A stretch of DNA of 64,000 nt from Bacteroides sp. (GTDB taxonomy: Bacteria > Bacteroidota > Bacteroidia > Bacteroidales > Bacteroidaceae), in NCBI GenBank assembly GCA_034176395.1, contig JAXFUC010000011.1:14235-78234 (forward strand), read 5' to 3'. Below the pieces are notes generated by a model that was not told the origin of the DNA, did no database searches, and was given only the letters and a program-made list of their open reading frames with translations. Position numbers and translations under genes: made by a program. This document shows positions 43,875 through 62,541 of the stretch, in pieces. Position 1 is the first letter of the stretch. Each line of letters starts with the position of its first letter.

Positions 43875-44249
43875 TTAGAAAGGCAGGTCGTCGGTGGCGT
43901 CACCGACCGTGAAACCGGGTACGGGCGATGCGGCCGGAGGAGGCACATCGGCTCCACCCATAGCCTGCGGCATAGCCGAGCCACGTTCCACTTTCCAAGC
44001 ACGTATGCTATTGAACCAACGGTCTTGCCATTGACGAGCGTCGATGTCGAAAGATACGGTCAAGACCTCGCCCATCTGAATGTTAAACTGTTCGATTTTG
44101 TCGGCCCCAAATACATCGAAGCACATCTTGCGTGGATACTGATCGTTGCTTTCGATGACATATTCTTGGGCTTTCCATTCGTTGCCACTGGCTTTGGACA
44201 CTCCGCTGCGCATGGGCAGGATGGCAATCACTTTTCCTGTAAATTCCAT
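43875..44249 (-). CDS. DUF3127 family protein (SSB-like)
   Basis: MEFTGKVIA, WKAQEYV, QYPRKMCFDVFG, FDIDARQW..RWFN..AWK; acidic DDLPF tail. Confidence 0.88.
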   Translation of the reverse strand: MEFTGKVIAILPMRSGVSKASGNEWKAQEYVIESNDQYPRKMCFDVFGADKIEQFNIQMGEVLTVSFDIDARQWQDRWFNSIRAWKVERGSAMPQAMGGADVPPPAASPVPGFTVGDATDDLPF

Positions 44250-44400
44250 TGTCGTAAACTTTTGTAGATTATGCTGCGAAGGTACATTTTTTGTAAGAGA
44301 AAAACATCCTTGCCCACGGCTTTCTTTGCGAAGTCACGGCTTCGAGGATATTCTTCTCGGGCACACTCACCTTGATTTCCTCTCGCCATCGACCAACAAA

Positions 44401-44434
44401 ACACCCCTTTTCAATCGCGATTGAAAAGGGGTGT
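44401..44434 (-). terminator. Terminator after glnA (perfect 34-bp palindrome)
   Basis: ACACCCCTTTTCAATCG|CGATTGAAAAGGGGTGT, then TTTG on the minus strand. Confidence 0.75.
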
Positions 44435-44466
44435 ATAAGCTATTTAGAGCCGCAAGCGACTTATCT

Positions 44467-46656
44467 TTACTTGGTAAAAAGCAATTCGCGGTACTTGGGC
44501 AAAGGCCAAATTTCATCGTCGATCTCCATCTCCAGATGGTCGATATGGTCGCGAATCAGCTCCAAATAGGGGCGCACTCGGTCTTCGTAAGCAAAGGCTT
44601 TGTCTTTGTGCGAACCCAGATGATTGGCCACCTTGCGTTCTTCTATCATATCGTGTACCAGTGTTTTGATAGCTGTTACCCGACGTGAGATGTTGCGCAC
44701 CAAGTCCTTTCGATCGGCACTCATGGATTCGTATTCCTCGGGGGAGAAAATCTCCTTCATGCGACAGAGGTTCTCGAGCAAACGATTTTGATATTCCACG
44801 GCAATAGGCACAATGTGATTGATGGCCAAATCGCCCAATACGCGGCTTTCGATTTGCACCTTCATCGTATACTTCTCCAGCTCCACTTCCAACCGGCTGT
44901 TCAGCTCCGTTTCATTGAACACGCCCTCGCCTATCAAGACCGATCGAGACTGTTCGTCCACGTAGTGCAACAAAGCTTGAGGCACATGGTTAATGTTGGT
45001 CAGCCCACGACGAGCCGCCTCTTCTTTCCATTCCTCGGAGTAGCCATCGCCCTCGAAACGGATGGGTTCGGAAGCAAGGATGGTTTCTTTCAGAATGCGG
45101 AATATGGCCTCATCCTTGCCCACACCTTCGGCCATCAAACGTTCCACCTGCCGGCGGAAATCGTTGAGTTGGGCCGCCATGGCCGCATTGACCGCAATCA
45201 TGGCCGCAGCACAGTTGGACGACGAACCGCCGGCACGAAACTCAAAACGATTACCGGTAAAGGCAAAGGGAGAAGTGCGGTTGCGATCGGTTGTGTCGAG
45301 CAATATCTCGGGAATACGCCCAATGCCCAGCTTGAGTGTAGTCTTTTCCTCGGGTGTCATCTTATCATCGCCCACCTGGCGCACAATTTCATCGAGCGTG
45401 GCCGAGAGTTGACGACCCAGGAAGCAAGAAAGGATGGAAGGAGGAGCTTCGTTTGCCCCCAGGCGATAGCTGTTGCTTGCGCTGGATATGGAGGCTCGCA
45501 ACAGGTTCTGATTCTTGTAGACCATCATCAGCGCATTGACCAAGAACGTGAGGAAAAGCATATTCCCCTTGGGATTCTTGCCCGGTGCAAACAAATTGAT
45601 GCCGGTATCGGTGCACAGCGACCAATTGTTGTGTTTGCCCGATCCATTGACACCGCTATAAGGTTTCTCGTGCAGCAATACGTTGAAATGATGCTTACGA
45701 GCGATGCGCTTCATAAGATCCATCACCAATTGGTTATGGTCGTTGGCCAAATTGCAGTTCTCAAAGATCGGAGCTAACTCAAATTGGTTGGGGGCCACCT
45801 CGTTGTGGCGCGTCTTTGCCGGAATGCCCAACTTATGACACTCAATCTCCAGCTCCTTCATAAAGGCCGTCACACGGGGAGGTATGGAACCGAAGTAATG
45901 GTCTTCCAACTGTTGGTCTTTGGCCGAAGCGTGCCCCATCAGCGTGCGTCCCGTCAAAGCCAAATCGGGGCGGGCGTTGTAGAGCGAAGAGTCCACCAAA
46001 AAGTATTCCTGCTCCCAGCCCAAGTTGGCATACACCCGGGTCACATTCTTATCGAAGAGCTGACACAACTCGGTAGCCGCCTTATCCACCGCAGCCAAAG
46101 CCTTCAACAAAGGCGTCTTATAGTCGAGTGCCTCGCCCGTATAGGAAATAAAGATGGTGGGGATACACAAGGTAGAATCTACCACAAAAGCAGGCGAAGA
46201 AACATCCCATGCAGTGTAACCACGTGCTTCAAACGTATTGCGGATGCCACCATTGGGAAATGAAGACGCATCGGGCTCTTGTTGAACAAGCAATGAACCG
46301 GAGAAACGCTCGATCACTCCGCCATCGTCTCCCATCTCGATAAAGCCATCGTGCTTCTCGGCCGTTCCGTCGGTCAGTGGTTGAAACCAGTGTGTGTAAT
46401 GGGTTACATTGAGCGATTTAGCCCAACTCTTCATACCATTGGCAATCAAATCGGCTTGTTCCCGACTAATAGGTATTCCCCGCTCTATGGCATCCACCAC
46501 TGCTTTGTAGGCCTCCCGAGGAAGATACTCTTGCATCTTTTTGCGGTCGAACACATGACTGCCATAGTAGTCGGACAGTTTCTCTGAAGGGGGAGTTACC
46601 ACCAACGGTTGCCGATTGGCCAGCTCTTGGAGAGCAAAAAATCTCATCTTGGACAT
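44467..46656 (-). CDS. glnA: Glutamine synthetase type III
   Basis: HYTHWFQPLT..TAEKHD, EPDASSFPNGG, HNEVAPNQFE, HEKPY.GVNGSGKHNNW, DRNRTSPFAFTGNRFEFR; start MSKMRF. Confidence 0.95.
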   Translation of the reverse strand: MSKMRFFALQELANRQPLVVTPPSEKLSDYYGSHVFDRKKMQEYLPREAYKAVVDAIERGIPISREQADLIANGMKSWAKSLNVTHYTHWFQPLTDGTAEKHDGFIEMGDDGGVIERFSGSLLVQQEPDASSFPNGGIRNTFEARGYTAWDVSSPAFVVDSTLCIPTIFISYTGEALDYKTPLLKALAAVDKAATELCQLFDKNVTRVYANLGWEQEYFLVDSSLYNARPDLALTGRTLMGHASAKDQQLEDHYFGSIPPRVTAFMKELEIECHKLGIPAKTRHNEVAPNQFELAPIFENCNLANDHNQLVMDLMKRIARKHHFNVLLHEKPYSGVNGSGKHNNWSLCTDTGINLFAPGKNPKGNMLFLTFLVNALMMVYKNQNLLRASISSASNSYRLGANEAPPSILSCFLGRQLSATLDEIVRQVGDDKMTPEEKTTLKLGIGRIPEILLDTTDRNRTSPFAFTGNRFEFRAGGSSSNCAAAMIAVNAAMAAQLNDFRRQVERLMAEGVGKDEAIFRILKETILASEPIRFEGDGYSEEWKEEAARRGLTNINHVPQALLHYVDEQSRSVLIGEGVFNETELNSRLEVELEKYTMKVQIESRVLGDLAINHIVPIAVEYQNRLLENLCRMKEIFSPEEYESMSADRKDLVRNISRRVTAIKTLVHDMIEERKVANHLGSHKDKAFAYEDRVRPYLELIRDHIDHLEMEIDDEIWPLPKYRELLFTK

Positions 46657-46686
46657 CTTGAGTTGTATTATTAGGGTTTTTCGGAG

Positions 46687-46694
46687 CAAATGTA
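46687..46694 (-). promoter_or_regulatory. Housekeeping promoter -7 element (TACATTTG)
   Basis: TAnnTTTG on minus strand 31 bp upstream of the glnA start. Confidence 0.6.
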
Positions 46695-46719
46695 CACTTT
46701 CACCCGGATTAACCCCAAC

Positions 46720-46756
46720 AAAAATAGGGTCTATCTCAAAAATAGACCCTATTTTT
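46720..46756 (-). terminator. Terminator of the SusCD-M16 operon (15-bp perfect inverted repeat)
   Basis: AAAAATAGGGTCTAT-ctcaaaa-ATAGACCCTATTTTT, about 125 bp past the M16 stop. Confidence 0.7.
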
Positions 46757-46879
46757 CATTACACCCCCTCTATGTTCCAGGGGTCATCTCTAAAATATCA
46801 TTCAAAAACTGAGCACAGACTCCATTTATTCGTCTGTCCGTAAATCTACATTTCAGTGGTCAACCTCGCATCCAAAACC

Positions 46880-49720
46880 TCACTTCTCCCAAGAACGCAG
46901 ATGTGGAGGTAAGGACTTGACGATAATTTGTCGCTCCTTGGCTTGCGAAAGAATTCTCTTGACTATTTGACTCATTTCCTCAATCGTAAGTGTGGCAAAA
47001 GGAGATTCTTCTTTTGCTGTTCCTACTTTGGGAGGAATTTGACCTGTTGTCGAATAGATGTTGATAACCCCCAACCAAAAAAGTTCCTCGGGCATCTCGG
47101 ACTCAAAATCCTCCTCGGGCTGCACGGCCAAGGGCACTTGGATGGCCTTGAATTCATCAACGCTCATCTCACCCTCGCTCACCTGCCGAACGATGCGTTC
47201 GGCCAGCTTCTTCATCTGCTCAGCACGCAATCGGTCGGTGGTAAAGTGCACAGATAGATTGGCCACGGGACGCAGCTGGGTTTCGTAATCAGCTCTAACA
47301 CCCACGCTATACGTCGCTTGCTCGCGTTCACGCAGCTCACTGAACAAGCGCTGTTCCAATACCCCCTTAAAGAGAGTCCAAGCTGCTTGCTCACGTTCGT
47401 TAAGTTCTACATCCGAAACGTACGAAAGCTCTACCTCTCCTACATCGCCCGGCAAATCCACTTCAAAAGTTTTCTCCAAACGTGAGTCGGAACGAGAGAA
47501 ATCCAATGCCTGTGGATTGGGAGGCAGTACCTTAAGCTCAGGATGGGTGGGGAGTGAAGCTATATAACGACAAACCAATCGCTTAGCCTCCTCTCTGGGA
47601 ATGTTTCCCACAAGACAGAAGGTGTAACGATCGGCATTTGCCAAATGAGCCTTAAAGAGCCGTTCAACGTCTGCCAACTTGATGCTGCGGTAGAAAGCCT
47701 CGTTCTTCTCGGGATTGTGCTCGCTATAAGGATAGAGGAGACGTTGTATGGAATCTTGCACAGCTTCCATTCCTTGAGGGTTGTGTGTCACGGCTGCCAA
47801 GGCGTTTCGTTCGATGTACTTCGCAAGAGTTTCCGCCGAGAAATTGTGGTTGGCCAACACCAAGTGCAGATAGGCGAAGAAATCTTCAGCCTCCTCTTGG
47901 GTAGTATTACCGCCCACCCCATCGCTTAACTCCTCTGCCGAGATGCTAAGTTCAAAGTCCTTGTTCTGCAACCATTGATGCAACTGATTGCGCGAGTAGC
48001 GGTGAACCCCACTCTGCATAATCAAACTGCGCATAGCTGTGTAGGCCGGAATGTCGCAAGACTTTACGGCCGAACGCCCCCCGGGAGCCGAACCCGCAAA
48101 ATAGCAACGACGTGCCTCGGGAAGATACTTGTAGTATAGTTTTGCTCCATTACTCAGCGTCCACTCTTCTATCTCCAATTCGGGAATGTCTTGTGATTTA
48201 AGTATCTGTCCTAAAGGAATCTCATGATCAACAAGCGTAGTGATGGGCTCATAATGCATCGGTTCCATTCTCGTGGTCTTGCCCTTTTGCAAAGCATGCA
48301 GAAAGGACTGTTCACTCAGATTCATCTCCTCTCCATTACGCGAGTAGGTGACAAAGGCAAGATTCTTGTCTCCACCGAGTGACTTCATCCAAGTATTCAG
48401 GTCTTCCACCTCTAATTCTACCAAGGTTTCCAAAGTCTCATGAAGTTGAACTCTAAAAGGAACGATATCTTCCCCGTAAAGAAAGTTCAACTTGAAGGCA
48501 TCGAAGTAATTATCGGGAGTGCCAAGCAATTTTGCCTCCAAAACAGATTTAATATCTTGATACATACTGCGCTTGCACTCCTCGAATTCTATTTCCGTGA
48601 ATCCCTCACGCACGATTGTTTCTCGCAAAGCAAGTACCTGCAAAAGGGCAGATTCGGCCTGCCCGGCATAGGGCACTACATCCCAAGCAAATTGGCGATA
48701 ACCGCGCACCAAATCCGAAAGGCTCACGGTAGCCGCAACGAACAGCTCTTGGTTATCATTGCGCAATTGTGCAAAGCGACGAGGAGCAAGGCGATTGAAA
48801 AAGCGTGTACAAATCATGTTTCGCAACACTGCCGATTTATCGCTCGGATTCACAACCGGGAAGCGTTGGTAGATACCAAACGAAGCACTCTTATTTTCCG
48901 CATCAACGAAGCGAATATAGAGAGGTGTTTCGTTATCGGCAATCAGACGTAGAGGTTTGTCGTCGGCCGTTGTTCCCGCTTTGAGCTTACCGAGTGTGGC
49001 ACGAAGCTTCTCTTCGTATTGCACGGGATCCACATCCCCGATGATGGCTACAAATTGCATATGAGGACGATACCAACTCTTGTAGAAGGCCTGCACCTCG
49101 CGTGCTGTAAAGCCCTTGATACTCTCTTCACTACCGATTACATTGCGGTGTGCGTAAACGCTATTGTTGTATATCACCGGAGCAATACTCTCGCTCAGAC
49201 GATGGTTCACATCATTGCGCTGCCGCCACTCTTCAACAACAATACCTTGCTCTTTACGTACGTCTTTCTCTGTTATTGCAATGCCATGACACCAATCATG
49301 GAGCAACCCGAGCATACGCGCATTCACTTCTTCGTCGTGCACCGGCACTCCATGAACAGCATAGTAGGTTTCATCCTTGCCCGTAAAAGCCTCGAAATCA
49401 TGTAGCCCCTTGCTTCGTAGGTATGCCATCACTCCCTCGGGGAAGTGGCGAGTCGTGTTGAAAGCCAAATGCTCCAAAAGGTGTGCAATACCTTGCTGGT
49501 GATCTTGCTCAAGAACAGCTCCTACGTTTTGATAGACGTAATAGCTCACTTGATCGGGCATACCTTTATCGTGCAGAATGTAATAACTCAATCCATTGGA
49601 GAGTTTCCCTTGCCTAAGTCTTTCGGCCAACTCGCTCTTAGTCTGTGCCTGCACAGATACACAGCTTAGGATAAGCAACATCCATAAGCTGTATTTTTTT
49701 AAGTATCTCCACATAATCAT
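46880..49720 (-). CDS. M16 family zinc protease (insulinase/PqqL-like)
   Basis: Signal peptide, GKLSNGLSYYI, inverted zinc motif HLLEH, IVVEEWR, second half WTLSNGAK and YSVG. Confidence 0.92.
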   Translation of the reverse strand: MIMWRYLKKYSLWMLLILSCVSVQAQTKSELAERLRQGKLSNGLSYYILHDKGMPDQVSYYVYQNVGAVLEQDHQQGIAHLLEHLAFNTTRHFPEGVMAYLRSKGLHDFEAFTGKDETYYAVHGVPVHDEEVNARMLGLLHDWCHGIAITEKDVRKEQGIVVEEWRQRNDVNHRLSESIAPVIYNNSVYAHRNVIGSEESIKGFTAREVQAFYKSWYRPHMQFVAIIGDVDPVQYEEKLRATLGKLKAGTTADDKPLRLIADNETPLYIRFVDAENKSASFGIYQRFPVVNPSDKSAVLRNMICTRFFNRLAPRRFAQLRNDNQELFVAATVSLSDLVRGYRQFAWDVVPYAGQAESALLQVLALRETIVREGFTEIEFEECKRSMYQDIKSVLEAKLLGTPDNYFDAFKLNFLYGEDIVPFRVQLHETLETLVELEVEDLNTWMKSLGGDKNLAFVTYSRNGEEMNLSEQSFLHALQKGKTTRMEPMHYEPITTLVDHEIPLGQILKSQDIPELEIEEWTLSNGAKLYYKYLPEARRCYFAGSAPGGRSAVKSCDIPAYTAMRSLIMQSGVHRYSRNQLHQWLQNKDFELSISAEELSDGVGGNTTQEEAEDFFAYLHLVLANHNFSAETLAKYIERNALAAVTHNPQGMEAVQDSIQRLLYPYSEHNPEKNEAFYRSIKLADVERLFKAHLANADRYTFCLVGNIPREEAKRLVCRYIASLPTHPELKVLPPNPQALDFSRSDSRLEKTFEVDLPGDVGEVELSYVSDVELNEREQAAWTLFKGVLEQRLFSELREREQATYSVGVRADYETQLRPVANLSVHFTTDRLRAEQMKKLAERIVRQVSEGEMSVDEFKAIQVPLAVQPEEDFESEMPEELFWLGVINIYSTTGQIPPKVGTAKEESPFATLTIEEMSQIVKRILSQAKERQIIVKSLPPHLRSWEK

Positions 49721-51030
49721 TTCTCCAACAATTCGAGTTCTGCAAGCTTCTTATGTACCACAGCCTGCACCATGGATTGGGCTGTTTGCAGTTTCTCCAT
49801 TTGTAACGACTCGATGTTCGCCTGATTATAAAGAGCACGTGCTCTGGTAAAGTCTTTCATTGCTCGGTAGGAGTCGCCCATCATCACGAGGAGATTGATG
49901 CGATTGATAAGCACTTCTTCTCCTTGTAACGCGCGTTCTATCCACACAATCGCCTGTTTATGCTGCTCTGCCTTTAACTTATCGCCCATGGCATAGTATA
50001 AATCTTGTGCAGCCTTTCCATAATCGGCCGGGGTGGCACTCTCACCAATCAATCCAAAGTACTTATTGAGCGACTCGATATAGCTACCGGCATCTTTATT
50101 CTTATACAGTTCGAAAAGGGCATCGAAATACATCTTGGAACGCTCATAGGGAACTACGCCCGGAGGCACTACCATGGAATAGGCAGCTTTGTACTCTCCG
50201 TTTATCTTATCAAGGTATTTGCTGTATTCGGCATCCCCCTCGCGTATAAGTTTCTCTATCTGCTCGTCGTTACTCTCTACAATGTAATAGGCTGCTGCTT
50301 GACCAACTGCTTTAATCCACTCATCGAGGTTTTGGTTGATAAACTCCATCATTTCCAAACGATGCGCTTCGTCTTCTCCACCAAGACTGTTGATAATTCG
50401 ATAGTCGGTCTTATTGATAAGGGCAGGCCCTTTCTTGGCTGAGATGTACGAATGGTAGAGTTTGCGCACACGCACCACCCATTTTTCCGCATCCATTCCT
50501 TCTTGGGCAGCCAAGAAGTTGGGAGCTTTCGCAAGCAGTTCTTGTTGTATCTTCAGATCGGCAGGATCATTACGGTGTCTCTTATACAGTTCCTCGAAAC
50601 TTATGGCATCTCCCTTGGCAATACGAGCTGCTTCCAGCAGTTCCACAGCGTTCAACGCTCCCGAATGAATCGACAAGGGTTTACCCTCCTTATTCACAAA
50701 AGCGAGGGTGGGGAAAGCCTCCACTTTGAACAACTCTACGGCCGTCTTATTCTCGGACTTCTCAGCATCAAGTTTCACCGAAATAAAATGCTCATTGAAA
50801 TAAACGCCCACGGAATCAACTGTAAACACTTCATTGCTCATGCGCTTACAAGGACCGCACCACACTGCATAGAAGTCGATGAACAACAATTTGTTCTGCT
50901 TTTGAGCGGCTGACAAGGCCTGTTCGTATGTTCCTTCAAAAAAATGAATACCGCTCTTTTGCTCCTGAGCCGACAGTCCCGATAGGTAAACAAGGGTCAG
51001 GAGGGGCATTATTATGTATCTCTTTATCAT
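49717..51030 (-). CDS. Exported thioredoxin-domain protein (WCGPC) with TPR-like helical C-terminus
   Basis: LLFIDFYAVWCGPCK, VEAFPTL; signal peptide from MIKRYII (ORF track starts at 51066); stop overlaps the M16 start. Confidence 0.85.
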   Translation of the reverse strand: MIKRYIIMPLLTLVYLSGLSAQEQKSGIHFFEGTYEQALSAAQKQNKLLFIDFYAVWCGPCKRMSNEVFTVDSVGVYFNEHFISVKLDAEKSENKTAVELFKVEAFPTLAFVNKEGKPLSIHSGALNAVELLEAARIAKGDAISFEELYKRHRNDPADLKIQQELLAKAPNFLAAQEGMDAEKWVVRVRKLYHSYISAKKGPALINKTDYRIINSLGGEDEAHRLEMMEFINQNLDEWIKAVGQAAAYYIVESNDEQIEKLIREGDAEYSKYLDKINGEYKAAYSMVVPPGVVPYERSKMYFDALFELYKNKDAGSYIESLNKYFGLIGESATPADYGKAAQDLYYAMGDKLKAEQHKQAIVWIERALQGEEVLINRINLLVMMGDSYRAMKDFTRARALYNQANIESLQMEKLQTAQSMVQAVVHKKLAELELLEK

Positions 51031-51174
51031 AATCTTGTTTTCTTTATTGATTTCTTCGTTTTTCATCTCTGGGCTTGGAATGGGGAAAAGTAATCCACCG
51101 TTTTAGTCCTCGGTATCTTCTTCTCCATCGCCACTCTCGGAGGTTTCATCATCCAACTCCTCGTAAGAAATTAC

Positions 51175-51654
51175 TTACTGCAAATGAGCCGGTAACTCAT
51201 CACCGACAGTGAAAGTGATAATATCCTTAGCCACAGCTTCATGCCCCTCGTTATAGATCCTCAATGTCAAGGTATAGCATCCATTAGGCAAGACCTTAAC
51301 GGCCTCTTGTGTCAGCAAAAGCATACTTCCTTGCAAAAAGATCTTGCCGAGCTTCACTTGTTCCAGAAACTTGGCTTGATCTCCTCCCTGCTCCACACGC
51401 ACACTAACAAATTCGTAGTTAATCGGTGCCGTACCGGCCACTCCTTGTATTTGAGACGATACCCATGGAGAATTATTGAGAGCACGATCGCTCGTGGGAT
51501 CCAAATGACGAGCCACATAAACCGTGTCGGGGGCATATGTTGCCGTGTCAATGCGCAAGTAGCCAACTTTCATGCGTTCGCACGAAGCGAACAAGAGCAT
51601 CGAGCAGAGCACAAGAAGCCCTACCGATCCATATACATTCTTTCGTTTCATCAT
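51175..51654 (-). CDS. Uncharacterised small lipoprotein of SusCD locus
   Basis: Lipobox FAS-C-ERMKVGYL, APDT, PWVSSQIQGVAGTAPINY; predicted beta-rich. Confidence 0.7.
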   Translation of the reverse strand: MMKRKNVYGSVGLLVLCSMLLFASCERMKVGYLRIDTATYAPDTVYVARHLDPTSDRALNNSPWVSSQIQGVAGTAPINYEFVSVRVEQGGDQAKFLEQVKLGKIFLQGSMLLLTQEAVKVLPNGCYTLTLRIYNEGHEAVAKDIITFTVGDELPAHLQ

Positions 51655-51656
51655 AA

Positions 51657-52280
51657 TTAAAAGTCGTTTAGGGTAAAACTATAATCCAATGAGTGTACCA
51701 CGCCTGTCAGCGTTGTAATATTACTGGAAGCCACCACTGTTCGCTTTTGGGTAGCTTCCGAAACCAAATAAATCTGCTCGGGACCGGCCTCGGGAATCTC
51801 GTTGAAAGTTCCTTTGAAGGTGTACACCCATAATTCCTTGCCCGAAGCCATCTTCAGAAGTTCGCCACCCGTACCGATTATTTGCTCTGTATCCACCGAG
51901 GGTCGACCGGCCTTGAAGTCTATCAGAAACTTGCGCTCACCGAGGAGACAGTCTAATAACATTGTTCGACAAACATCTTTCGGAATATCCGTCACCTTCT
52001 CAAGATCATTTTCCAGGAGGTAACGACGTATGCTGTGATTCGTTGGGCCAAAGAAGGTGAAATTTGTTCCTCGACCTCCATCGAAGTAATCTTGCATTTC
52101 GGCGTGTGTAATCATCTCCATCAGCAAACTCCAATTATAGGAGTCTGTTGCGAAGTACCCCCACATCGTTGTATTGTGGTTCCCATTGGCCTCGCCCGTA
52201 TCTATGAGGTTATACTTGGTACAACCTTGCGTAACCGCCAAAATCACGCAGGCAACAAGTAGCAAAAATGTCTTCTTCAT
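51657..52280 (-). CDS. Fasciclin-like lipoprotein
   Basis: Lipobox QG-C-TKYNLIDTG; TFFGPTNHSI (H1-like) and SNITTLTGVVHSLD (H2-like) fasciclin boxes. Confidence 0.65.
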   Translation of the reverse strand: MKKTFLLLVACVILAVTQGCTKYNLIDTGEANGNHNTTMWGYFATDSYNWSLLMEMITHAEMQDYFDGGRGTNFTFFGPTNHSIRRYLLENDLEKVTDIPKDVCRTMLLDCLLGERKFLIDFKAGRPSVDTEQIIGTGGELLKMASGKELWVYTFKGTFNEIPEAGPEQIYLVSEATQKRTVVASSNITTLTGVVHSLDYSFTLNDF

Positions 52281-52298
52281 AACGTAGTGTTCTCTTGA

Positions 52299-53846
52299 TT
52301 AGTTAATATACTGAGCCCAATAGATTTTTTGTCTAATCACAGGATTGATCAAGATTCCGTCTTTGTAACGAGCCTCCTGGGGAACAGGAAGCACCAAAGC
52401 CCCATTGAGCACATCTTGATGAGTGAGTGTTTTGAATTTTCCTTCCAAGTCCGTGCGGAAGTAATTGTTACGAATGATGTCGAAGAATCGTGCGTCGTTC
52501 TCGCAAATGAATTCTTTCTCACGTTCGCGGAATATAGCCCGTTGCAAACCATCACTGTCTTTCTTTGCGTTGGGATATTCCGTGGCTTGGGCACGACGAC
52601 GAATTACATTCAGGTCATTCTGTGCTCGCATTTCCTCTCCAAGTTTCGCAGCACATTCGGCACGCAACAGATAAATATCCGCTAAACGCCAATACACATA
52701 ATCGGTATCCAAACTCCGTAGGCGTTTTCCGGAAGTTTCCGTTTGGTCTACGTCATAAATGGCATTACGAAACTTATAGGCCAGAGCATAAGTCTTAGTC
52801 CCACTGCTGTGTTCGGTGTTTGCTTCGTAAAAGAATGCTTGCTTACGAAGATCGGTTTCTTCATACATCTCGTCAATAGTGGATTTATACAGCCGTAGAA
52901 TCGTTTTTGACTCAATATCGCCAAGCAAAGCTGTCTCGTCTACGGGATAAGAAAGAAATTCTGAAGCTACAAAGTTGGGAGTTTGAGCATAGATGGAACG
53001 TCCCACATCGTAAATGAGCGAGAATACAACCTCGGGATGCGAGGTACTCGCTTTATTGAAGGCTCCCGTACAAAGCTCCTCCGGATTCTCTGCCAACTGA
53101 TAGTGACCCACCTGCTGATCAATCAACATCGTTGCGTATTCAACCGATTTACGATAAGCTTCCCGAGCATCGCCTGCAAATTTATACAATTCTATTACAC
53201 TGCCTTTCCATGCATACAAATGAGCCAAAAGAGCTGCACTCGAACCTTTCGAAGCATATTGCCGGTTCGTGATTGCTGCTCCATTTACGTCTTTCAGCTT
53301 ATCGTAAGTAGGCAATAGCTCCAATGCTTTCGAAGCATGGGCTATGGCGTGGTCAAGAACTGCGAGTTGGCTGGAAACATCGTACACCTTGATGGTTTTT
53401 GAGTCTTCCAAAATAGGCACCTCTCCGTAACGCTGTACCAAACACAAATAGGCCAACCCAAGAGCAAAGTGAGCCTGACCGGCGTGCGTATTATAACGTT
53501 CTTCATTCAGATTCTTGGTTCGAGAGATGTTGTCCAACAAGAGATGCGATTCGAAGATGGCTTTATACAGTCCACTCCAATCTTGAACACCGTTTACATA
53601 CTGAGGATTCCATCGGCGTACTTCCTGCCCCGACTGCAACTCATCAGCCAACACGCCGACCGAACGAAAAGCCAAATTATCGGCCACAGACGATAGAAGA
53701 TAGAATTGTATGGCAGAGGTTGTAGTATTCAACTCACGCTCGGTATCGAAAGAATTCGAATAAGTCAAACCATTCTCGGGCTGCAAATCAAGATTACAAG
53801 AACCAAGTAGTAAAAGCCCGGCAAAAAATATAAATATCTTTTTCAT
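52299..53846 (-). CDS. RagB/SusD family lipoprotein
   Basis: GS-C-NLDLQPE lipobox, YWRLADIYLLRAECAAKLG, LNVIRRRA, IFREREKEF. Confidence 0.92.
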   Translation of the reverse strand: MKKIFIFFAGLLLLGSCNLDLQPENGLTYSNSFDTERELNTTTSAIQFYLLSSVADNLAFRSVGVLADELQSGQEVRRWNPQYVNGVQDWSGLYKAIFESHLLLDNISRTKNLNEERYNTHAGQAHFALGLAYLCLVQRYGEVPILEDSKTIKVYDVSSQLAVLDHAIAHASKALELLPTYDKLKDVNGAAITNRQYASKGSSAALLAHLYAWKGSVIELYKFAGDAREAYRKSVEYATMLIDQQVGHYQLAENPEELCTGAFNKASTSHPEVVFSLIYDVGRSIYAQTPNFVASEFLSYPVDETALLGDIESKTILRLYKSTIDEMYEETDLRKQAFFYEANTEHSSGTKTYALAYKFRNAIYDVDQTETSGKRLRSLDTDYVYWRLADIYLLRAECAAKLGEEMRAQNDLNVIRRRAQATEYPNAKKDSDGLQRAIFREREKEFICENDARFFDIIRNNYFRTDLEGKFKTLTHQDVLNGALVLPVPQEARYKDGILINPVIRQKIYWAQYIN

Positions 53847-53852
53847 GTTCGT

Positions 53853-56800
53853 TTAGAATTTGAAGTTTAATCCCACCGTCACTTTACGATTGAGGGGGTA
53901 TTGCTTACCATCATCGACTCCGCTTTCAAGAGATACGATTTCGGGATCCAAACCGGAGTAATTGCTCAACAAGAAGAGGTTCTCGGCAGAGAGGTAGATA
54001 TTTACTCCTTTCAGTTTGAATCTGTTGAGAAAATTCTCAGGCACCTTATAACTAAGTGTCAGCATTTTGAGACGCAAGAAATTTACATTCTCAATGTTAG
54101 AATCAATGTTTCCGTCAAATTGTCCAATATAATCGCTATCTGCATAAGCCAACGATGGGTAGTCCGCATTGTCCCCAGGCTTCTCCCAGAAAGAATAACC
54201 TCGATAGTCATTCTTTATCGTTCCGAAACCTTTATCGAAATTGAAAGCAGAGTTCTTCACCATATTCATCATCTTACGCCCTAACGTGTAGCTGAAGTGC
54301 AAAGACAAACTAAAGTTTCTCCAATCAAGGTATGTACTGATGCCTCCGTATGCAAGTGGCAACGTCGTGCCGGCATAGTAGCGGTCTTTATCGTCGATGA
54401 CACCATCGGAATTTTGATCCTTAATCTTCCGACCGCCTACACCGAGCTGGGCAGTTTCCGTTCCAAAGGCCAAAGGACGACGAACTCCTGATTTATTGTA
54501 GTAGTAAGGAATATCTTCCTCACGCTGAACAATCCCTTCATCTTGATAAGTGTAAATGCCATAGATGGGACGTCCCAATACCAAATGCTTAACATCTTCA
54601 CCGGCATACGACTTGCGGAAGAGATTGCGATTGTGCGAAGCATTAAATCCCAGCGACCACTTCCAATCTCCCTTGTTCAAGATATCCGCCATCACCTCGA
54701 GCTCAATACCTTCATTGGAGATTGCCGAAGAGTTACTCCATGCCTTGTCTGCGATAAAGAAGTTACCCGGTAACGGTATCTCCATCAACAGAGCGTGTGA
54801 GTACTTATAGTAGTAGTCCAACTTGAAGCGCAAACGACTGTCCAGGAGATGTAAATCCAGACCAAGGTCATACTGATCACTCTTCTCCCACGTAAGTTTG
54901 TTGTTGGCCATAAACTCGGGCATCAGTGCCAGCGTACCCATAAAAGTGTTGGCTGCTGCCATTACTCCGAGCGCAAGGTATGCATCGGGGAATTTCTGTC
55001 CCGAACGTCCCCAAGAAGCCCGAAGTTTACCAAAGTTGAGCCACCACAAGTTTTTCATAAACTTCTCTTGCGAGAAAGCCCAACCTAACCCCATGGAAGG
55101 GAATAGCCCCCACCGAACGGCACTACCGAATACCGACGAACCATCGGCACGAATGGAGAACTCGGCCAAATAACGTTGCTTATAGTTGTAGGCCACACGT
55201 CCCAAATAGCTCTGCATAGCTTGTTCTTCTTTGTTATTGCTAAACTTCTGAAGAGCTATGTAGTTGTTATTGGCCTCATCGAGAAGTAAGGGATCTCCCC
55301 AGTCCTTTGCATAGGTGATATAATCTGTCGGGCCATTGCGTGCCTCACCGCCAAGTGTTCGCAAGAGATCCCTGTTGTAGGTGATGCCTGTCATAAAGTC
55401 CAGCACATGGCTATCTCTAATGCGCAATTCGTAATTGAGCAGGTTCTCAAATTGCAGCATCGTCATGCCAATGTGCGATTCATCGACCAACGAGCGCTTG
55501 TCATAGGCCAAGTAACTCGGCGTAAAGCGGTAGCTACGTGTGCTGTAGTGGTCAAGAGCTGCCGTAGAGCTGAAACGCAGCCCTTTCAAGATCTCATAAT
55601 TGAAACCTGCATTCAAGCGTATATTATAATTGCTGTTCTCCCGCTTAATGTCCAATAGCTTCTTACTTGCTTCCCGTTCAGCGATGGAACCCTTACCCGG
55701 TAGTAAGGTAGACGACGAAGTGGGGTCGAGCGTAAGTCCCTGTATTTTACCCATATCCTCGCCGGCATTCTTGTCCGTGTAAAAAAGGTTCGTGCGGAGG
55801 AAGGCGGTCAGACGTGGAGTCAAGTTGAGGTCGAGATTGCTGAGAAGACTAAAACGCTTAAAGCTCGAACTAAGCATGATACCCGTTTCATCGTAAAAGC
55901 CGGCATTGATCATATACTTGATATTCTCTTTACCCCCCGAAACCATGGCATCTGCTTTCGTCACACGTCCCACACGAAAAGCGTACTTCCACCAATTCGT
56001 TCTATTGTTATAAAAAGTATTCAACGAGTCTTGCACCATGCCCGGGAGTCGCTCTTCTTCGGACAGACGCAACCCATTGCGCCAAAGGTAGTCATAGGCT
56101 CCTTCGTAATTACCCCAACCCCACGAATCTCTATGGCTTTTGGGCATCACCACACGATTTGTCATTGCATCGTAATGTCCCAAGCGTTGCATCTTTGCCA
56201 AAAGCAGCGCAAAGTCGCGTTCGCCTTTACCCATGATCTGCACCGGCGTTTCAGGAAGCCACGAATAACTTTGTGAAACATTGACGCTAAACTCCGACTT
56301 ACCTGTTTTACCCTTCTTAGTCGTTATCAAGATAACTCCGTTTCCTGCACGCGATCCATAGAGCGAGGCAGAAGCTGCATCCTTGAGAACTTCCACCGAT
56401 TCTATGCTCGAGGGGTCTAAGCCGGCCAGCGTATTGATACCTCCCGTCTGCTCCGATGTTGTTGAAACCACCGGCACACCGTCTATCACAAACAAAGGCG
56501 ATCCGTCTATTTTAGCATTAGCCCCTCCGATGGAACTTAATCCACGTATGGTTATTTGCGAGCCACCTCCACCGGGCGTTCCCGACACGTTTGTCACCTC
56601 TACTCCTGCCATATGTCCTTGCAGCAGGTTCTCAATGCTTGCGCTGGGTGTATGCTGCAGCTTATCTGCCTTGACCGATGAAATAGATCCCACCAATTCT
56701 CTCACATTACGCTTACCATAGGCCACCACCACAACCTCTCCAAGATTTTGTGCCGTGGATTCCAACACAATTTTAAGGGGCTCGCCCACTTTATACGGAA

Positions 56801-57326
56801 TCACCCGTGTAGTGTAACCTATGCAACTCACTTGAATGTCTCCGCCGGTGGCATTGGTCACAAAACTGAACGTTCCATCATCCTTGGCAATCGCTCCCGA
56901 GGTCGTACCTTTGATAGCAATCGTAGCAAATGGAATAGCCTCTCCTTTGGAGTCAATAACCACCCCTTCGATGGTTTCTTGTCCTTGAGTGGCCGAGGCA
57001 GCAGAAGTAGAAACTTTAAAAACTTTAATGGCCCTACCTTCCACTGTATAAGTGAAAGGCGTATTCTTGAGCAATTGTTGCACCGCTTCGACAGCACTCA
57101 CTCTGTCGAGCGAAGCCGTGAGCGTCGTTTCATAACGCTTCACCTCGTCGGTATAGGTTACAAGAAACTTGCCTTGCTTAGCGATCATATCAAGCACAGA
57201 TGCCAAAGATTTATCCTTGAACGACAAGGATATGACAATCTCATCCTTGTTGCTTTGAGCATACAATCCTGACGACTGCAAGGCACTAAGCGCTAAGGCA
57301 ATTAAAGCTAAATAGAAATACCTCAT
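53853..57326 (-). CDS. SusC/RagA TonB-dependent transporter with STN domain
   Basis: Signal peptide, STN-like domain, VLKDAASASLYGSRAGNGVILITTKKG, QYPLNRKVTVGLNFKF. Confidence 0.95.
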   Translation of the reverse strand: MRYFYLALIALALSALQSSGLYAQSNKDEIVISLSFKDKSLASVLDMIAKQGKFLVTYTDEVKRYETTLTASLDRVSAVEAVQQLLKNTPFTYTVEGRAIKVFKVSTSAASATQGQETIEGVVIDSKGEAIPFATIAIKGTTSGAIAKDDGTFSFVTNATGGDIQVSCIGYTTRVIPYKVGEPLKIVLESTAQNLGEVVVVAYGKRNVRELVGSISSVKADKLQHTPSASIENLLQGHMAGVEVTNVSGTPGGGGSQITIRGLSSIGGANAKIDGSPLFVIDGVPVVSTTSEQTGGINTLAGLDPSSIESVEVLKDAASASLYGSRAGNGVILITTKKGKTGKSEFSVNVSQSYSWLPETPVQIMGKGERDFALLLAKMQRLGHYDAMTNRVVMPKSHRDSWGWGNYEGAYDYLWRNGLRLSEEERLPGMVQDSLNTFYNNRTNWWKYAFRVGRVTKADAMVSGGKENIKYMINAGFYDETGIMLSSSFKRFSLLSNLDLNLTPRLTAFLRTNLFYTDKNAGEDMGKIQGLTLDPTSSSTLLPGKGSIAEREASKKLLDIKRENSNYNIRLNAGFNYEILKGLRFSSTAALDHYSTRSYRFTPSYLAYDKRSLVDESHIGMTMLQFENLLNYELRIRDSHVLDFMTGITYNRDLLRTLGGEARNGPTDYITYAKDWGDPLLLDEANNNYIALQKFSNNKEEQAMQSYLGRVAYNYKQRYLAEFSIRADGSSVFGSAVRWGLFPSMGLGWAFSQEKFMKNLWWLNFGKLRASWGRSGQKFPDAYLALGVMAAANTFMGTLALMPEFMANNKLTWEKSDQYDLGLDLHLLDSRLRFKLDYYYKYSHALLMEIPLPGNFFIADKAWSNSSAISNEGIELEVMADILNKGDWKWSLGFNASHNRNLFRKSYAGEDVKHLVLGRPIYGIYTYQDEGIVQREEDIPYYYNKSGVRRPLAFGTETAQLGVGGRKIKDQNSDGVIDDKDRYYAGTTLPLAYGGISTYLDWRNFSLSLHFSYTLGRKMMNMVKNSAFNFDKGFGTIKNDYRGYSFWEKPGDNADYPSLAYADSDYIGQFDGNIDSNIENVNFLRLKMLTLSYKVPENFLNRFKLKGVNIYLSAENLFLLSNYSGLDPEIVSLESGVDDGKQYPLNRKVTVGLNFKF

Positions 57327-57353
57327 AGATTCTTCATTTTTAATAGTTCGAGC

Positions 57354-57380
57354 GACGAATGTACTAAAAAACCTTTACCC
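57354..57380 (-). promoter_or_regulatory. Possible ECF-type promoter (GGGTAA-N17-CGTC)
   Basis: Minus strand GGGTAAAGGTTTTTTAGTACATTCGTC, 28 bp upstream of the susC ATG; overlaps a TACATTCG housekeeping-like variant. Confidence 0.4.
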
Positions 57381-57655
57381 ACCCACCGAAGCGACATTTT
57401 TTTTGTAAAAAGAAGTATCCGAAACATAAAACCACAAGATCATACAACCGCATCTCATAGGTTTCGTCCACGAAGTTCTCATATCCGGTACGGCTACAAA
57501 GCATATTTCTTACAACCCTGTCGGCCTTCTATTCTCCTAAAGCCCCATAACAACATGGCGTAAGCTCCATCAAATGAAGTCGAAACCACCGGCTTCTGCC
57601 TCTTTCGATCGTCTATCTTTTCGGAAAAAATCCTATGCAGGACGTCCAATAACAG

Positions 57656-57685
57656 TCAAGGGCTACCTTAATGGGTGGCCCTTGA
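57656..57685 (-). terminator. Hairpin after SusD, possible terminator
   Basis: TCAAGGGCTACC / GGTGGCCCTTGA with one mismatch; weak T-run. Confidence 0.45.
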
Positions 57686-57760
57686 TTGTATCTCATCTCT
57701 TCTTGCAAGAAAGATGAGGTTTATCCAAAGAATTCGTCTAAACGACTCCCGTTTTCCCGA

Positions 57761-59197
57761 TTATCGGGTAACGTTCTGCTTCAAGGTTCCGTTACCGGGG
57801 TTACTCATTGCCTCATTGGGGAAAGGCATAATCCACAAATGGGAGTTGGGGTTCAATTTATAAATCGTCCCGTTGACCGTCTTGGTAAGGGTACGAGCAT
57901 ACTCCGGAGTTTTATTCAAACGGCGGTAGTCGCAAAACACCACAGAACTTTGAATATACTCATTGGCCTTGTCGTTTATAATCTTCTCAACAGCTTCTTG
58001 GGTCGTCGAAGCAGTCCAGTCGGTGTAGTATTCCGGAAGAATACGCGTCTTACGGACCCGATTGACCAACTCCATGGCAGCCTCCAGATTAGCTGCTCCA
58101 CCTTGACGAGCCAAACATTCGGCCTTGATATAATACATCTCGGGGCTTCTCATTCCTCCTTTATTGGGTTCAAGACCATAAATACCGGCCTGATACTCAA
58201 TACCAGAAGCCGACACACGCCGCTTCCAGTGGGTCAACAGCCGTGTATCACCGGCCTCGAAGCGAGTAGCCCGCTCAGGAGGAAGGGCATATGATACATT
58301 ATTATTGCCTCGATACATATTCATCGAGCCGAAGTGGAAGAAATAATTCTCGGGATTGTTGCGTTCGGGGTTTCCATTCACTCCGACAGCATAATTCGAA
58401 GAACTCTCGTAGCGCGCACGATCGGCTTCGTAGAAAGCCACCCAATTGAACAACTGATCGTTTATCTCCAACGCCTTATTGGCATACACCAAGGCTTGAT
58501 CGTAATTGTTCATCGAGAGATGCGTGCGTGCCAACAATCCGTAAGCTGTCACCACGGTGGGATGGAACAGGCTTTCTCCCTCCTGCGGAAGGTGCGGAAC
58601 GGCGGCCTCCAAGTCGGACAAGATAAGCCGATAGACCTCCTCCAGCGTACCTTGGGGAGAGGGAGACGTTACCGAGGAAGAAGTCACCAAAGGAACAGCA
58701 AGCAGATGCTTGGTCGATTCCGTGTACTGATCGGCATAATAATTGACCAAATAATAATAGACCCATGCCCTAAGCACACGCCCTTGAGCCGTCAACATTT
58801 GACGTTTTTCCTCCGTGGCATCGGCTGCCGTGGGTGCCCCGTCGATGATTAAATTGGCATAAAACAACGCTTCGTAGGCATTGTAATATGCGTTTTTGTC
58901 CGTCGAGTTGATTTGTGTACGATCGACCTCTTCATTCCAAAAGTAATGAGCATTGGCCAGTTGATTGGAATTAAGTTGATTGGGCGTGTAGAATAAGTCA
59001 CCGACCAGGCAAAACATCTGATCCATCTCGAGGTAGTGCTTCTCGGTCGTCCTGATAAAAGCATTATAATCCTCCCAGGTCGTAGGGGTTTTCTGCCCTT
59101 TGGGGATTTCGTTCAAATAGTCATTGCATCCACACAGCACGATTGAAGAAGTCAGCAATGCGCTCCACGCCAGGACTTTTATTTTATCTATATTCAT
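57761..59197 (-). CDS. RagB/SusD family lipoprotein
   Basis: LCG-C-NDYLNEIP lipobox, AQGRVLRAWVYYYLVNYY, AYGLLARTHL, GMRSPEMYYIKAE; start MNIDKI. Confidence 0.92.
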   Translation of the reverse strand: MNIDKIKVLAWSALLTSSIVLCGCNDYLNEIPKGQKTPTTWEDYNAFIRTTEKHYLEMDQMFCLVGDLFYTPNQLNSNQLANAHYFWNEEVDRTQINSTDKNAYYNAYEALFYANLIIDGAPTAADATEEKRQMLTAQGRVLRAWVYYYLVNYYADQYTESTKHLLAVPLVTSSSVTSPSPQGTLEEVYRLILSDLEAAVPHLPQEGESLFHPTVVTAYGLLARTHLSMNNYDQALVYANKALEINDQLFNWVAFYEADRARYESSSNYAVGVNGNPERNNPENYFFHFGSMNMYRGNNNVSYALPPERATRFEAGDTRLLTHWKRRVSASGIEYQAGIYGLEPNKGGMRSPEMYYIKAECLARQGGAANLEAAMELVNRVRKTRILPEYYTDWTASTTQEAVEKIINDKANEYIQSSVVFCDYRRLNKTPEYARTLTKTVNGTIYKLNPNSHLWIMPFPNEAMSNPGNGTLKQNVTR

Positions 59198-59216
59198 ACG
59201 AATACATATTTGAAGA

Positions 59217-62200: not shown

Positions 62201-62507
62201 CATAGGAGAATTGCAAGATCGCCCCTTTGGGTACGTTTAAGGAGAATTTACCGTCTACATCGGTAATAGTACCGCCTGCCACGCCTTTTTCGCGCACGGT
62301 AACCCCGATGAGAGGTAGGTCATCGGCATCGACCACCACACCCTTCACCATCAGGCGCACTTGCTCTCCTTCTCGGGAATGAGTGGTCATTTCGGGAGCG
62401 GATGCAAACAACGGAACACCCGACAACGAGCCTGCCATCAGGCAAGCCACACCCACGGCCAAGTTCCATTTCTTTTTTAAACGAGATTCAAACACTTCCA
62501 TCTTCAT
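59217..62507 (-). CDS. SusC/RagA TonB-dependent transporter lacking an STN domain
   Basis: Signal peptide then directly the carboxypeptidase-regulatory-like domain (VKGVVVD), LKDAAAASIYGARAANGVIVITTKK, C-terminal Phe. Confidence 0.95.
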   Translation of the reverse strand: MKMEVFESRLKKKWNLAVGVACLMAGSLSGVPLFASAPEMTTHSREGEQVRLMVKGVVVDADDLPLIGVTVREKGVAGGTITDVDGKFSLNVPKGAILQFSYVGMKTTEVVATQERELRVVLQANSEQLDEVMVTGYQTLSKERSTGAFTQVKAEKFETRRMENLGSILEGQVAGYVDGKIRGVTTMSAVANPLVVIDGFPVENTGIDRMGQTTDRFPELNPEDIESVTVLKDAAAASIYGARAANGVIVITTKKAALGKTEISLSTSYAFQPYSYYVANRTDAADVVGLQRAWAAQSEQLQSGVAGASVVADDLRTTGAYPSKGIDILLNMYTQKIGMEEGEKLLNELAAKGYRYYDQAVERAKRNPIYRQYNIRLANRTDRNSFALSTTYWDNQYEDIFRNDKKLGVNLSNSLKLTDWLQADVNVYLKYGKEQGQSFDVFSPGFSFLPYDELFDESGASVAAPSQIDASRRELIARYGLREEVLTPLDELRRQLSKTQSLETRASGRLNFDLTPWAKYHVMFQYETGEGKTSMLREREAYDVVSTLNNFTSLVNDKVFYNLPEGDVLATTDTRNRSYNLRHQLSLTKDLGTAHSLAWILGQEVRESKLEYQDNTRYGYDSDLLNWPAYNAASLAYFSGLLGAAQFSYSSNTSQRELLNRFVSFYSNASYSLLDKYTLSGSIRWDRSNLWGTSSKYQNKPVWSMGGSWNVDKEPFFRWKAMDRLQLRMSYGIGGNIGRNTAPYLVASYYPAILSSGLFGAVTAPPNKDIRWEKTTTFNLGVDFSFLRGRLYGSIDYYNKYSTDLLAYINSSPTQGFGYSMLTTNNGEMLNRGVELTLHATLLKSKDFRWDATGLYAFNYNRVKKIHIDAVQYNSRLSYPTSFPTEGNPLHGIYAYRWAGLSPTGEPQVYDAEGNVTSQPVRDSKAIVYCGTSVPPHSGTLTNVLRYKDVEFSLQLLLLAGHKLRDTFVPAINMGSGRVVSTHKDILKRWQQAGDENRTQVPRLLFSDNRQEYNTHRSELYGASDLFVYNASHLRVNNLSLAYYLPKTLTKKLFLRDAKLQFIVENLAVIAFDGRASYALGGKQNPNFVGSIHLNF

Positions 62508-62541
62508 GTTTTTTGGTTTATAATAATGATTTCAGTCATTT

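Follow-up and report, generated by a model that had tools for sequence, protein, structure and literature searches.

A conserved six-gene SusCD cassette of host-associated Bacteroidales with a possible role in the import, reduction and cleavage of disulfide-bonded polypeptides

What does a SusC/SusD transporter pair import when the genes that follow it encode two small lipoproteins, a thioredoxin and a zinc peptidase? The question is raised by a stretch of 64,000 nucleotides (nt) from Bacteroides sp. (assembly GCA_034176395.1, contig JAXFUC010000011.1, positions 14,235 to 78,234), which was analysed as a whole and is called the window below. Its minus strand carries such a six-gene cassette between positions 46880 and 57326. 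Many SusC/SusD pairs of Bacteroidota sit without carbohydrate enzymes and their cargo is largely unknown; the cassette is a compact and conserved example, and what its additional genes suggest is a particular chemistry, namely the reduction of disulfides followed by cleavage in a chamber protease. Its gene order and gene sizes recur in at least 12 loci of other genera, where the flanks are unrelated, and the import, reduction and cleavage of a disulfide-bonded polypeptide is the reading that the evidence supports best. The features of the locus are listed below, in the direction of transcription from the transporter gene to the terminator, with the candidate promoter last; lengths of the proteins are in amino acids (aa).

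53853-57326, minus strand: SusC/RagA-type TonB-dependent transporter, 1157 aa
52299-53846, minus strand: SusD/RagB-family lipoprotein (the lid), 515 aa, lipobox LGSC
51657-52280, minus strand: lipoprotein with a FAS1 (fasciclin) fold, 207 aa, lipobox TQGC
51175-51654, minus strand: immunoglobulin (Ig)-like beta-sandwich lipoprotein, 159 aa, lipobox FASC
51031-51174, minus strand: spacer between the Ig-like lipoprotein gene and the thioredoxin gene
49717-51030 (reading frame open back to 51066), minus strand: exported WCGPC thioredoxin with a C-terminal domain resembling tetratricopeptide repeats (TPR), 437 aa
46880-49720, minus strand: exported four-domain M16 (pitrilysin-type) zinc peptidase, 946 aa
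46720-46756, minus strand: intrinsic terminator at the predicted operon end, 17-bp stem, 3-nt loop and U tract
57355-57380, minus strand: candidate promoter GGGTAA-N16-TCGT of the extracytoplasmic-function (ECF) sigma type, 28 nt upstream of the SusC ATG

The recurrence of the cassette was found with a profile of the thioredoxin-TPR protein and with exact-protein look-ups. The same six genes are present in Prevotella multiformis, on a contig of the P. melaninogenica type, in Hallella bergensis and Porphyromonas cangingivalis, in uncultured Porphyromonas, Prevotella, Odoribacter and Butyricimonas, and in one metagenome-assembled genome (MAG) labelled Flavobacteriaceae. Order and sizes (about 1160, 515, 210, 155, 437 and 946 aa) are kept, and the flanks differ every time. 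As at least 12 loci in other genera share this order and these sizes amid unrelated flanks, the arrangement lies far beyond chance. Moreover, identity to the window proteins is similar for all six (34-62%), as would be expected of genes that are inherited as a unit. In three loci of the Porphyromonas type the M16 gene has been relocated just upstream of SusC and is still attached, and the spacing between the thioredoxin and M16 genes is 0-53 nt in six orthologous loci. The initial annotation had proposed a search for conserved neighbourhoods as a check, and the view of the cassette as a conserved functional unit of host-associated Bacteroidales is supported by these comparisons of sequence. 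Its distribution is sparse. With a profile of the small lipoprotein, the cassette was detected in 5 of the 400 other Bacteroidales genomes that were sampled (in one of the five as a pseudogene) and was not detected in two genomes of the same genus and one of the same family; among 400 genomes sampled across the phylum, it was present in none. Cultured oral and gut carriers exist, including Prevotella multiformis, P. melaninogenica-type strains, Hallella bergensis DSM 17361, Porphyromonas cangingivalis and Butyricimonas.

The six open reading frames occupy 46880-57326 without any competing long frame. All of them lie where the initial annotation had placed them, and the families that it named were upheld by searches with Pfam and NCBIfam profiles. 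Its description of gaps of 2-18 bp and a 4-bp overlap holds for the first three spacers (6, 18 and 2 nt) and for the 4-nt overlap of the thioredoxin and M16 genes, but it passed over the fourth spacer, which measures 108 nt, or 144 nt to the consensus thioredoxin start. The strong terminator that it described after the M16 gene is real: a perfect 17-bp stem with a U tract lies there. A simple terminator scan missed this site, which was detected by folding against 200 shuffled sequences (z = -3.66; none of the 200 shuffles was as stable); it is the centroid hairpin, and the minimum free energy of the 91-nt stretch is -32.1 kcal/mol. Since the long spacer contains neither a terminator-like site (by the simple scan) nor a promoter consensus (no TAnnTTTG box on the coding strand), and since a strong terminator follows the M16 gene, the six genes are likely to be co-transcribed as one operon-like cassette. 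The absence of carbohydrate-active enzymes (CAZymes) from the operon, also claimed earlier, was confirmed: no glycoside hydrolase, lyase or esterase domain was found in the six proteins with Pfam and NCBIfam. An Rfam scan of 44000-58000, which includes the long spacer, gave zero matches. The G+C content of the cassette (46.7%) corresponds to the 10th percentile of the genome (50.7%) and is unremarkable. A tlpA-susC-susD operon (57761-63993) lies upstream, beyond a spacer of 434 nt; a single unit made up of this operon and the cassette was considered and rejected as a conserved feature, as the operon is the neighbour of the cassette in none of the orthologous loci.

The transporter belongs to the SusC/RagA subfamily, as it matches TIGR04056 with 743.6 bits (cut-off 368), carries the TIGR04057 signature (59.7 bits, cut-off 46.2) and has a plug domain (80.5 bits). 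A signal peptide (..LYA/QS, the slash marking the cleavage site) is followed by an STN-like domain at about aa 25-110, a CarboxypepD_reg-like domain at 118-200, the plug at 208-331 and the barrel. The STN domain scores 21.1 bits in Pfam, under the cut-off of 28.4; the N-terminal 109 aa match the N-termini of FecR-linked SusC proteins encoded in the same genome on contigs C99, C135 and C143. The nearest solved structures are glycan SusC proteins (8aa4, 1.6e-84), followed by RagA (2.7e-66) and BT2264 (2e-30). The SusD protein matches SusD_RagB (81.4 bits) and SusD-like_3 (49.6 bits), both over the cut-off, carries a lipobox cysteine and is encoded directly downstream of susC, after the 6-nt spacer. 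The sequence C-x-L-D-L-x-P-E-N that begins at its lipid-modified cysteine is conserved in most orthologues. Orthology with RagAB is not indicated, as RagA is a weaker match than the glycan SusC proteins and RagB is missing from the matches of SusD.

The thioredoxin-TPR protein is a thioredoxin-fold oxidoreductase with a conserved CxxC motif. Its thioredoxin domain matches PF00085 with 49 bits (cut-off 23.5) and Thioredoxin_2 and Thioredoxin_7 with about 50 bits, and the TPR match is weak. Residues W57, C58, P60 and C61 (W-C-x-P-C) as well as the cis-proline pair P107-T108 are invariant in all 20 homologues compared. Homologues of the protein are 434-444 aa long and start at an internal MIKRY, so that the real start of the gene is probably at 51030. 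WCGPC is the canonical reducing motif, and the residues flanking it (Asp, Trp and Lys) and the cis-Pro-Thr are typical of thioredoxin (TrxA). The best solved relative is 2kuc, a 'putative disulphide-isomerase' of B. thetaiotaomicron (1.8e-34), followed by PDI and the C-terminal domain of DsbD; the best 60 PDB matches of the profile all lie inside the thioredoxin part, at positions 12-143. The C-terminal part of about 300 aa is helical, with weak TPR_12 or TPR_8 matches in 13 of the 20 homologues. A binding or docking role of this domain is suggested by its occurrence without a thioredoxin domain in one of the variant loci described below (G355). The protein has a signal peptide (..LSA/QEQ) and is presumably a periplasmic reductase that, judging from the gene content, would be recharged by the only DsbD/CcdA-type membrane reductase of the genome, a single protein with a DsbD_TM domain. 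In the MAG labelled Flavobacteriaceae, a protein of 151 aa with a DsbD_N domain is encoded directly after the M16 gene (L005:14249-14704), and this protein might donate electrons specifically to the thioredoxin.

SusCD loci that end in a thioredoxin-fold protein seem to recur in this genome. A parallel architecture lies on contig C99 (3061-12222), which encodes an ECF sigma factor, FecR, an STN-SusC (1195 aa), SusD (522 aa), a lipoprotein of 300 aa and an exported protein of 370 aa; the latter begins with a thioredoxin domain that shares 39% identity with that of the cassette. The tlpA-susC-susD operon is another case.

The last protein is an M16 metallopeptidase with intact active-site motifs: HLLEH at residue 80 and EEW at 163-165, within matches to Peptidase_M16 (PF00675, 56 bits) and, in two stretches, M16_C (PF05193, 104 bits). 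HxxEH is present in all 13 aligned M16 sequences, the paralogue from the same genome included, and EE in 12 of them. The protein aligns over its full length with 9ldy (3.7e-81), with PqqL of E. coli (6ofs, 1.2e-44, query 33-926) and with FusC of Pectobacterium (6b03, 1.6e-43, query 15-859), and together with its signal peptide (..VQA/QT) this makes it a four-domain exported M16 of the PqqL/FusC type. A second exported M16 of the genome (contig C146:13406-16243, 945 aa, 25% identical) is encoded by itself, with an unrelated sigma-FecR-SusC locus about 6 kb away, and is probably the housekeeping periplasmic enzyme. A/Q signal-peptidase-I sites are present on SusC, the thioredoxin and the M16 peptidase, and lipobox cysteines on SusD and both small proteins, in the window as well as at 12 orthologous loci. 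The A/Q site is the usual form in Bacteroidota. No sorting domain of the type IX secretion system (T9SS) was detected in the cassette proteins with NCBIfam. Since they carry signal-peptidase-I signals and no T9SS domain, the thioredoxin and the M16 peptidase are most likely soluble periplasmic proteins.

The fasciclin label given earlier to the lipoprotein of 207 aa holds at the level of the fold and not by the Pfam score, which is 17.2 bits for PF02469, below the gathering cut-off of 22. Several homologues carry PF02469 in precomputed annotation, and at NCBI the homologues go under the name fasciclin. Its AlphaFold2 model, built on an alignment of 42 sequences, has a predicted local distance difference test score (pLDDT) of 91, and Foldseek matched it with probability 1.00 to FAS1 domains, those of TGFBIp, periostin and fasciclin I at E about 1e-6, and also to stabilin-2. 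Almost all of the top 22 PDB matches (E <= 0.001) are proteins with FAS1 domains, with template modelling (TM) scores of up to 0.79 per target domain. The lipoprotein of 159 aa had zero matches in Pfam, NCBIfam and PDB sequences. It is modelled as a single Ig-like beta sandwich (AlphaFold2 pLDDT 93), the fold matches of which are weak (E >= 0.015): besides Ig and cadherin domains they include one domain of the SusE-like protein BT4661. The family is small, with 276 representative clusters among 1.84 billion proteins, and has single and tandem forms.

The length of the spacer behind the gene of this protein can be traced in part. A 97%-identical relative (P0241, 183 aa) has a serine at the position of the TAA stop in the window, and the frame encoding its acidic tail of 24 aa is still open beyond the TAA (51103-51177, minus strand), so that 72 of the 108-144 spacer nucleotides are former coding sequence. 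The TAA represents either a nonsense change of recent date or a polymorphism among strains. Most orthologues lack the acidic tail, and its loss was therefore probably harmless. The corresponding spacer in orthologues of other genera is mostly 2-70 nt long.

The reading best supported by these data, to which we would give an even chance, is that of a non-glycan SusCD cassette that imports, reduces and cleaves a disulfide-bonded polypeptide. The SusC barrel, the SusD lid and the FAS1-fold and Ig-like lipoproteins would form an outer-membrane complex; a small polypeptide or protein with disulfide bonds would be captured by it and brought in with energy provided through TonB. The periplasmic WCGPC thioredoxin would then reduce the disulfides of the cargo and be recharged by a DsbD/CcdA-type reductase, and the TPR-like helical domain would hold the cargo or dock to the transporter. 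The M16 clamshell, which would accept only unfolded chains or small proteins, would cut the reduced cargo into peptides, which general transporters would take up. An unlinked pair of ECF sigma factor and FecR would switch expression through the STN domain of SusC. The initial annotation had described a complete pathway of capture, import, reduction and cleavage; the conservation of the unit, the fitting locations of the proteins and the intact active sites speak for it, and the word complete goes too far, as the cassette has no inner-membrane transporter and no linked regulator.

Several observations weigh against this reading. The SusC protein is no nearer to the peptide importer RagA than to glycan SusC proteins, and the M16 peptidase is nearer to other Bacteroidota M16 proteins (9ldy, and the paralogue from the same genome with E 3e-80 at 25% identity) than to PqqL or FusC. 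Reduction rather than isomerisation by the thioredoxin is suggested by the CGPC motif alone, the surface exposure of the two small lipoproteins is not readable from sequence, and co-transcription of the six genes, likely as it is, is deduced from their arrangement. The M16 gene is also dispensable, being absent from a Butyricimonas locus (L015) and from G209, G355 and G251, and paralogous loci of Butyricimonas and Odoribacter consist only of an ECF sigma factor, FecR, STN-SusC, SusD, the FAS1 protein and the Ig-like lipoprotein. As loci without M16 and thioredoxin exist, the four-gene core evidently works without reduction or proteolysis, and these variants lower our confidence that the two activities are intrinsic to transport.

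The variants differ in what has replaced the last two genes. In G209 the order SusC, SusD, FAS1 protein, Ig-like lipoprotein and thioredoxin (with WCVYC) is followed by a lipoprotein of 419 aa in place of M16, G355 has the helical domain without the thioredoxin domain and then two lipoproteins, and in G251 both the thioredoxin and M16 are missing and the small lipoprotein gene is broken. Since the deeper relatives keep only the core, the thioredoxin domain and M16 are best regarded as additions in one subfamily. Their tight retention within the cassette subfamily argues for an action on the imported cargo. No enzymes were found in the Butyricimonas and Odoribacter paralogues, so these loci do not discriminate between glycan and peptide cargo. 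At these loci (L098, L099, L101 and L102; genomes G797 and G796) the four-gene core with its upstream sigma/FecR pair is present in several copies per genome, which suggests that the core is a diversified transporter family in the manner of polysaccharide utilisation loci (PUL). In the M16-less variants L094:9125-11254 and L095:76-1335, the place of M16 is held by a lipoprotein that is about 415 aa long and matches no family; one M16-less variant adds a lipoprotein of 286 aa with a weak F5/8 type C match.

The regulation of the cassette can be approached in a similar way. In two orthologous loci of Butyricimonas, an ECF sigma factor and a FecR-type anti-sigma factor are encoded directly upstream, and together with the STN-like N-terminus of SusC this would place the cassette family among those that use trans-envelope signalling. 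A linked sigma/FecR regulator was found neither at the cassette in the window nor at the Prevotella and Porphyromonas loci, and the genome has nine FecR genes elsewhere. The control of expression probably lies with an ECF sigma/FecR pair that is not linked to the cassette and acts via the STN domain of SusC. Three copies of the core GGGTAA-N16-18-TCGT are present in the window (10305-10332, minus strand; 14769-14795, plus strand; 57355-57380, minus strand), each time 28-45 nt before a gene of an ECF system, namely two STN-SusC genes and a FecR gene (14814). Three matches compare with 0.45 expected, and none of 100 shuffles reached three. Across the genome the motif occurs at chance level, and only the three copies in the window directly precede genes of ECF systems; the pattern, which was drawn up by eye on the basis of two of these sites, serves as a lead only. 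Going by these sites, the sigma factor encoded at 14260-14790, or one of similar specificity, may also drive the cassette. As a conserved promoter the motif was rejected, since the pattern is not common to the regions upstream of the orthologous SusC genes. Several loci of the Prevotella type have TAnnTTTG-like boxes upstream of SusC, read by eye; no TAnnTTTG box was found on the minus strand in the upstream spacer (57327-57760, 434 nt).

Other explanations share parts of this evidence. The cassette could serve the piracy of metals or cofactors in the manner of the Fus system, with a small metalloprotein or a protein that carries a cofactor, such as a ferredoxin or a rubredoxin-like iron-sulfur protein, as the cargo and iron or a cofactor rather than amino acids as the gain; clusters bound through cysteines would be released, or the fold opened, by the thioredoxin, and M16 would then set the cofactor free. 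Among the transporter-linked M16 peptidases that have been characterised, FusC and PqqL are the nearest; both are part of systems regulated by iron, and ferredoxin is cleaved by FusC after its import (PMC6793856). Signalling through STN and an ECF sigma factor, present in the cassette family, is an arrangement classically found in iron uptake (FecIRA), and the hosts of the cassette are animal-associated anaerobes. However, control by ECF and anti-sigma factors is also common for SusC systems of Bacteroides that are unrelated to iron, and the cassette has no inner-membrane transporter for a metal or cofactor, no TonB paralogue and no recognisable site for an iron regulator. None of the flanks is related to iron either, and a paper on transcriptomes under iron limitation in Prevotella intermedia, P. 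gingivalis and B. thetaiotaomicron (PMC10434189) makes no mention of such a locus and contains no M16 or fasciclin terms. We regard piracy as unlikely. Lower still we place a function in defence or detoxification, by which cysteine-rich antimicrobial peptides or bacteriocins, such as defensin-like peptides of the host or toxins of competitors that use SusCD as their entrance, would be taken up and destroyed by reduction and then by M16 cleavage. Here the precedents are rhizobial M16 peptidases that degrade cysteine-rich peptides of the host (PMC8175422) and the SusCD pair ButCD, which is the entry gate for a disulfide-containing protein toxin in Bacteroides (PMC11467351). The patchy, accessory-like distribution of the cassette, with its absence from relatives of the same genus, would also fit. 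Yet the active import of a toxin would be an odd defence, sensing by STN followed by induction fits the acquisition of nutrients better, and no gene of an immunity or efflux type is part of the cassette.

An equally improbable explanation is that the locus serves a glycan or glycopeptide, the enzymes for which are encoded elsewhere, and that the thioredoxin and M16 are housekeeping genes that lie downstream by chance. The similarity of SusC to glycan SusC proteins (8aa4 and 9sje of the dextran utilisome, 5t3r for levan) is in its favour, as are the presence of NanU among the SusD matches, the weak resemblance of the Ig-like lipoprotein to a SusE-like glycan binder and the existence of the four-gene core without the peptidase; one divergent variant lies near a putative cluster of the hexosaminidase and sialate-lyase type, the functions of which were judged from translations alone. 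What this explanation does not account for is the attachment of the thioredoxin and M16 to the core in at least 12 loci of several genera with different flanks, even after rearrangement, which is unexpected if they are mere housekeeping neighbours. Besides, another M16 paralogue, encoded separately and by itself, is present in the genome, and no CAZymes were found in those flanks of orthologous loci whose called genes were listed. Finally, the initial annotation had seen in the position of the cassette next to glnA a hint of nitrogen scavenging. A gene for a type III glutamine synthetase does lie on the same strand, 190-225 nt downstream; the listed frame (TTG 46689) is probably too long, the homologues aligning from residue 11-12, with an ATG at 46655. 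The 17-bp terminator separates the two, however, and directly after it glnA has its own TAcaTTTG box, a Bacteroidota-type TACATTTG box at 46687-46694, 32 nt upstream of the likely ATG. None of 13 orthologous loci has glnA within 10 kb, and the same holds for 4 of 5 loci of a further set; the exception is the divergent variant G355, where a glnA homologue lies 7.7 kb downstream with an unrelated gene cluster in between. Moreover, in a genome of the same genus (G252) with a GlnA that is 88% identical, the cassette is missing and the neighbourhood is entirely different, with zero synteny at the level of DNA or protein. The coupling of a nitrogen-scavenging module to the adjacent glnA is thus already largely refuted by the comparative context, and we consider it very improbable.

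The import, reduction and cleavage of a disulfide-bonded polypeptide can be taken a step further. Since the M16 of the cassette is closer to other Bacteroidota M16 proteins, its pairing with a transporter probably arose independently, and it is tempting, though more tentative than the reading itself, to propose that host-associated Bacteroidales own an independently evolved machine for protein import, made up of SusCD and lipoproteins that admit small disulfide-stabilised proteins whole, a thioredoxin-TPR protein that unfolds by reduction, M16 cleavage and an ECF-sigma/STN switch. If the reading were confirmed, outer-membrane protein import would be extended to the SusCD family and periplasmic thioredoxins would gain a role in the processing of nutrients; the proposed machine, if real, would be the first import pathway with a reductase obligatory between outer-membrane translocation and proteolysis.

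Among known systems, Fus and YddB/PqqL come closest in their logic. There, a TonB-dependent transporter imports a protein, ferredoxin in the case of Fus, which a periplasmic M16 then cleaves; this protease-associated import is reported for Proteobacteria, with SusC named only as a distant and highly divergent outgroup (PMC6793856). The cassette shares with them the encoding of a TonB-dependent transporter together with a four-domain periplasmic M16 clamshell of about 930 aa. Its transporter is a SusC/RagA barrel with a SusD lid and two lipoproteins and not of the FusA/YddB type, it adds the thioredoxin-TPR protein, and neither a FusB-like TonB nor an ABC transporter like FusD/YddA was found in the cassette, its flanks or the orthologous loci.

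The helical extension of the thioredoxin resembles the chaperedoxin CnoX/YbbN, which combines an N-terminal thioredoxin fold with a helical TPR-type domain, a resemblance that would suggest a reduce-and-hold function. Unlike CnoX/YbbN, the protein of the cassette is exported and has a canonical WCGPC, and its C-terminal domain is only weakly matched to TPR. Likewise, the STN-like domain of SusC, the sigma/FecR pair upstream in Butyricimonas and the ECF-like motif before SusC are shared with SusC systems of the FecIRA type, from which the cassette differs in that the sigma/anti-sigma pair is unlinked in the genome of the window and in the Prevotella and Porphyromonas loci. From a functional PUL it is set apart by the lack of carbohydrate-active enzymes encoded with susC and susD.

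With RagAB, the peptide import system of P. gingivalis, BT2261-2264 and ButCD the cassette has in common a SusC/SusD pair without CAZymes, for which a polypeptide cargo is expected. BT2261-2264 of B. thetaiotaomicron is also similar in that SusCD is accompanied by two small accessory lipoproteins, and its complex reportedly contains a bound peptide. The FAS1 and Ig-like lipoproteins matched neither BT2261 nor BT2262 by sequence or fold, and RagA and BT2264, which score below the glycan SusC in the structure comparison given above, are not orthologous to the transporter of the cassette. The ButCD locus of B. fragilis (PMC11467351) has a ZnMc metalloprotease, and neither a thioredoxin nor an M16. 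A dedicated periplasmic pair of reductase and M16 is part of none of the three systems. The cassette, for which literature searches returned no description, is apparently undescribed and combines the features of non-glycan SusCD importers with those of protease-associated import.

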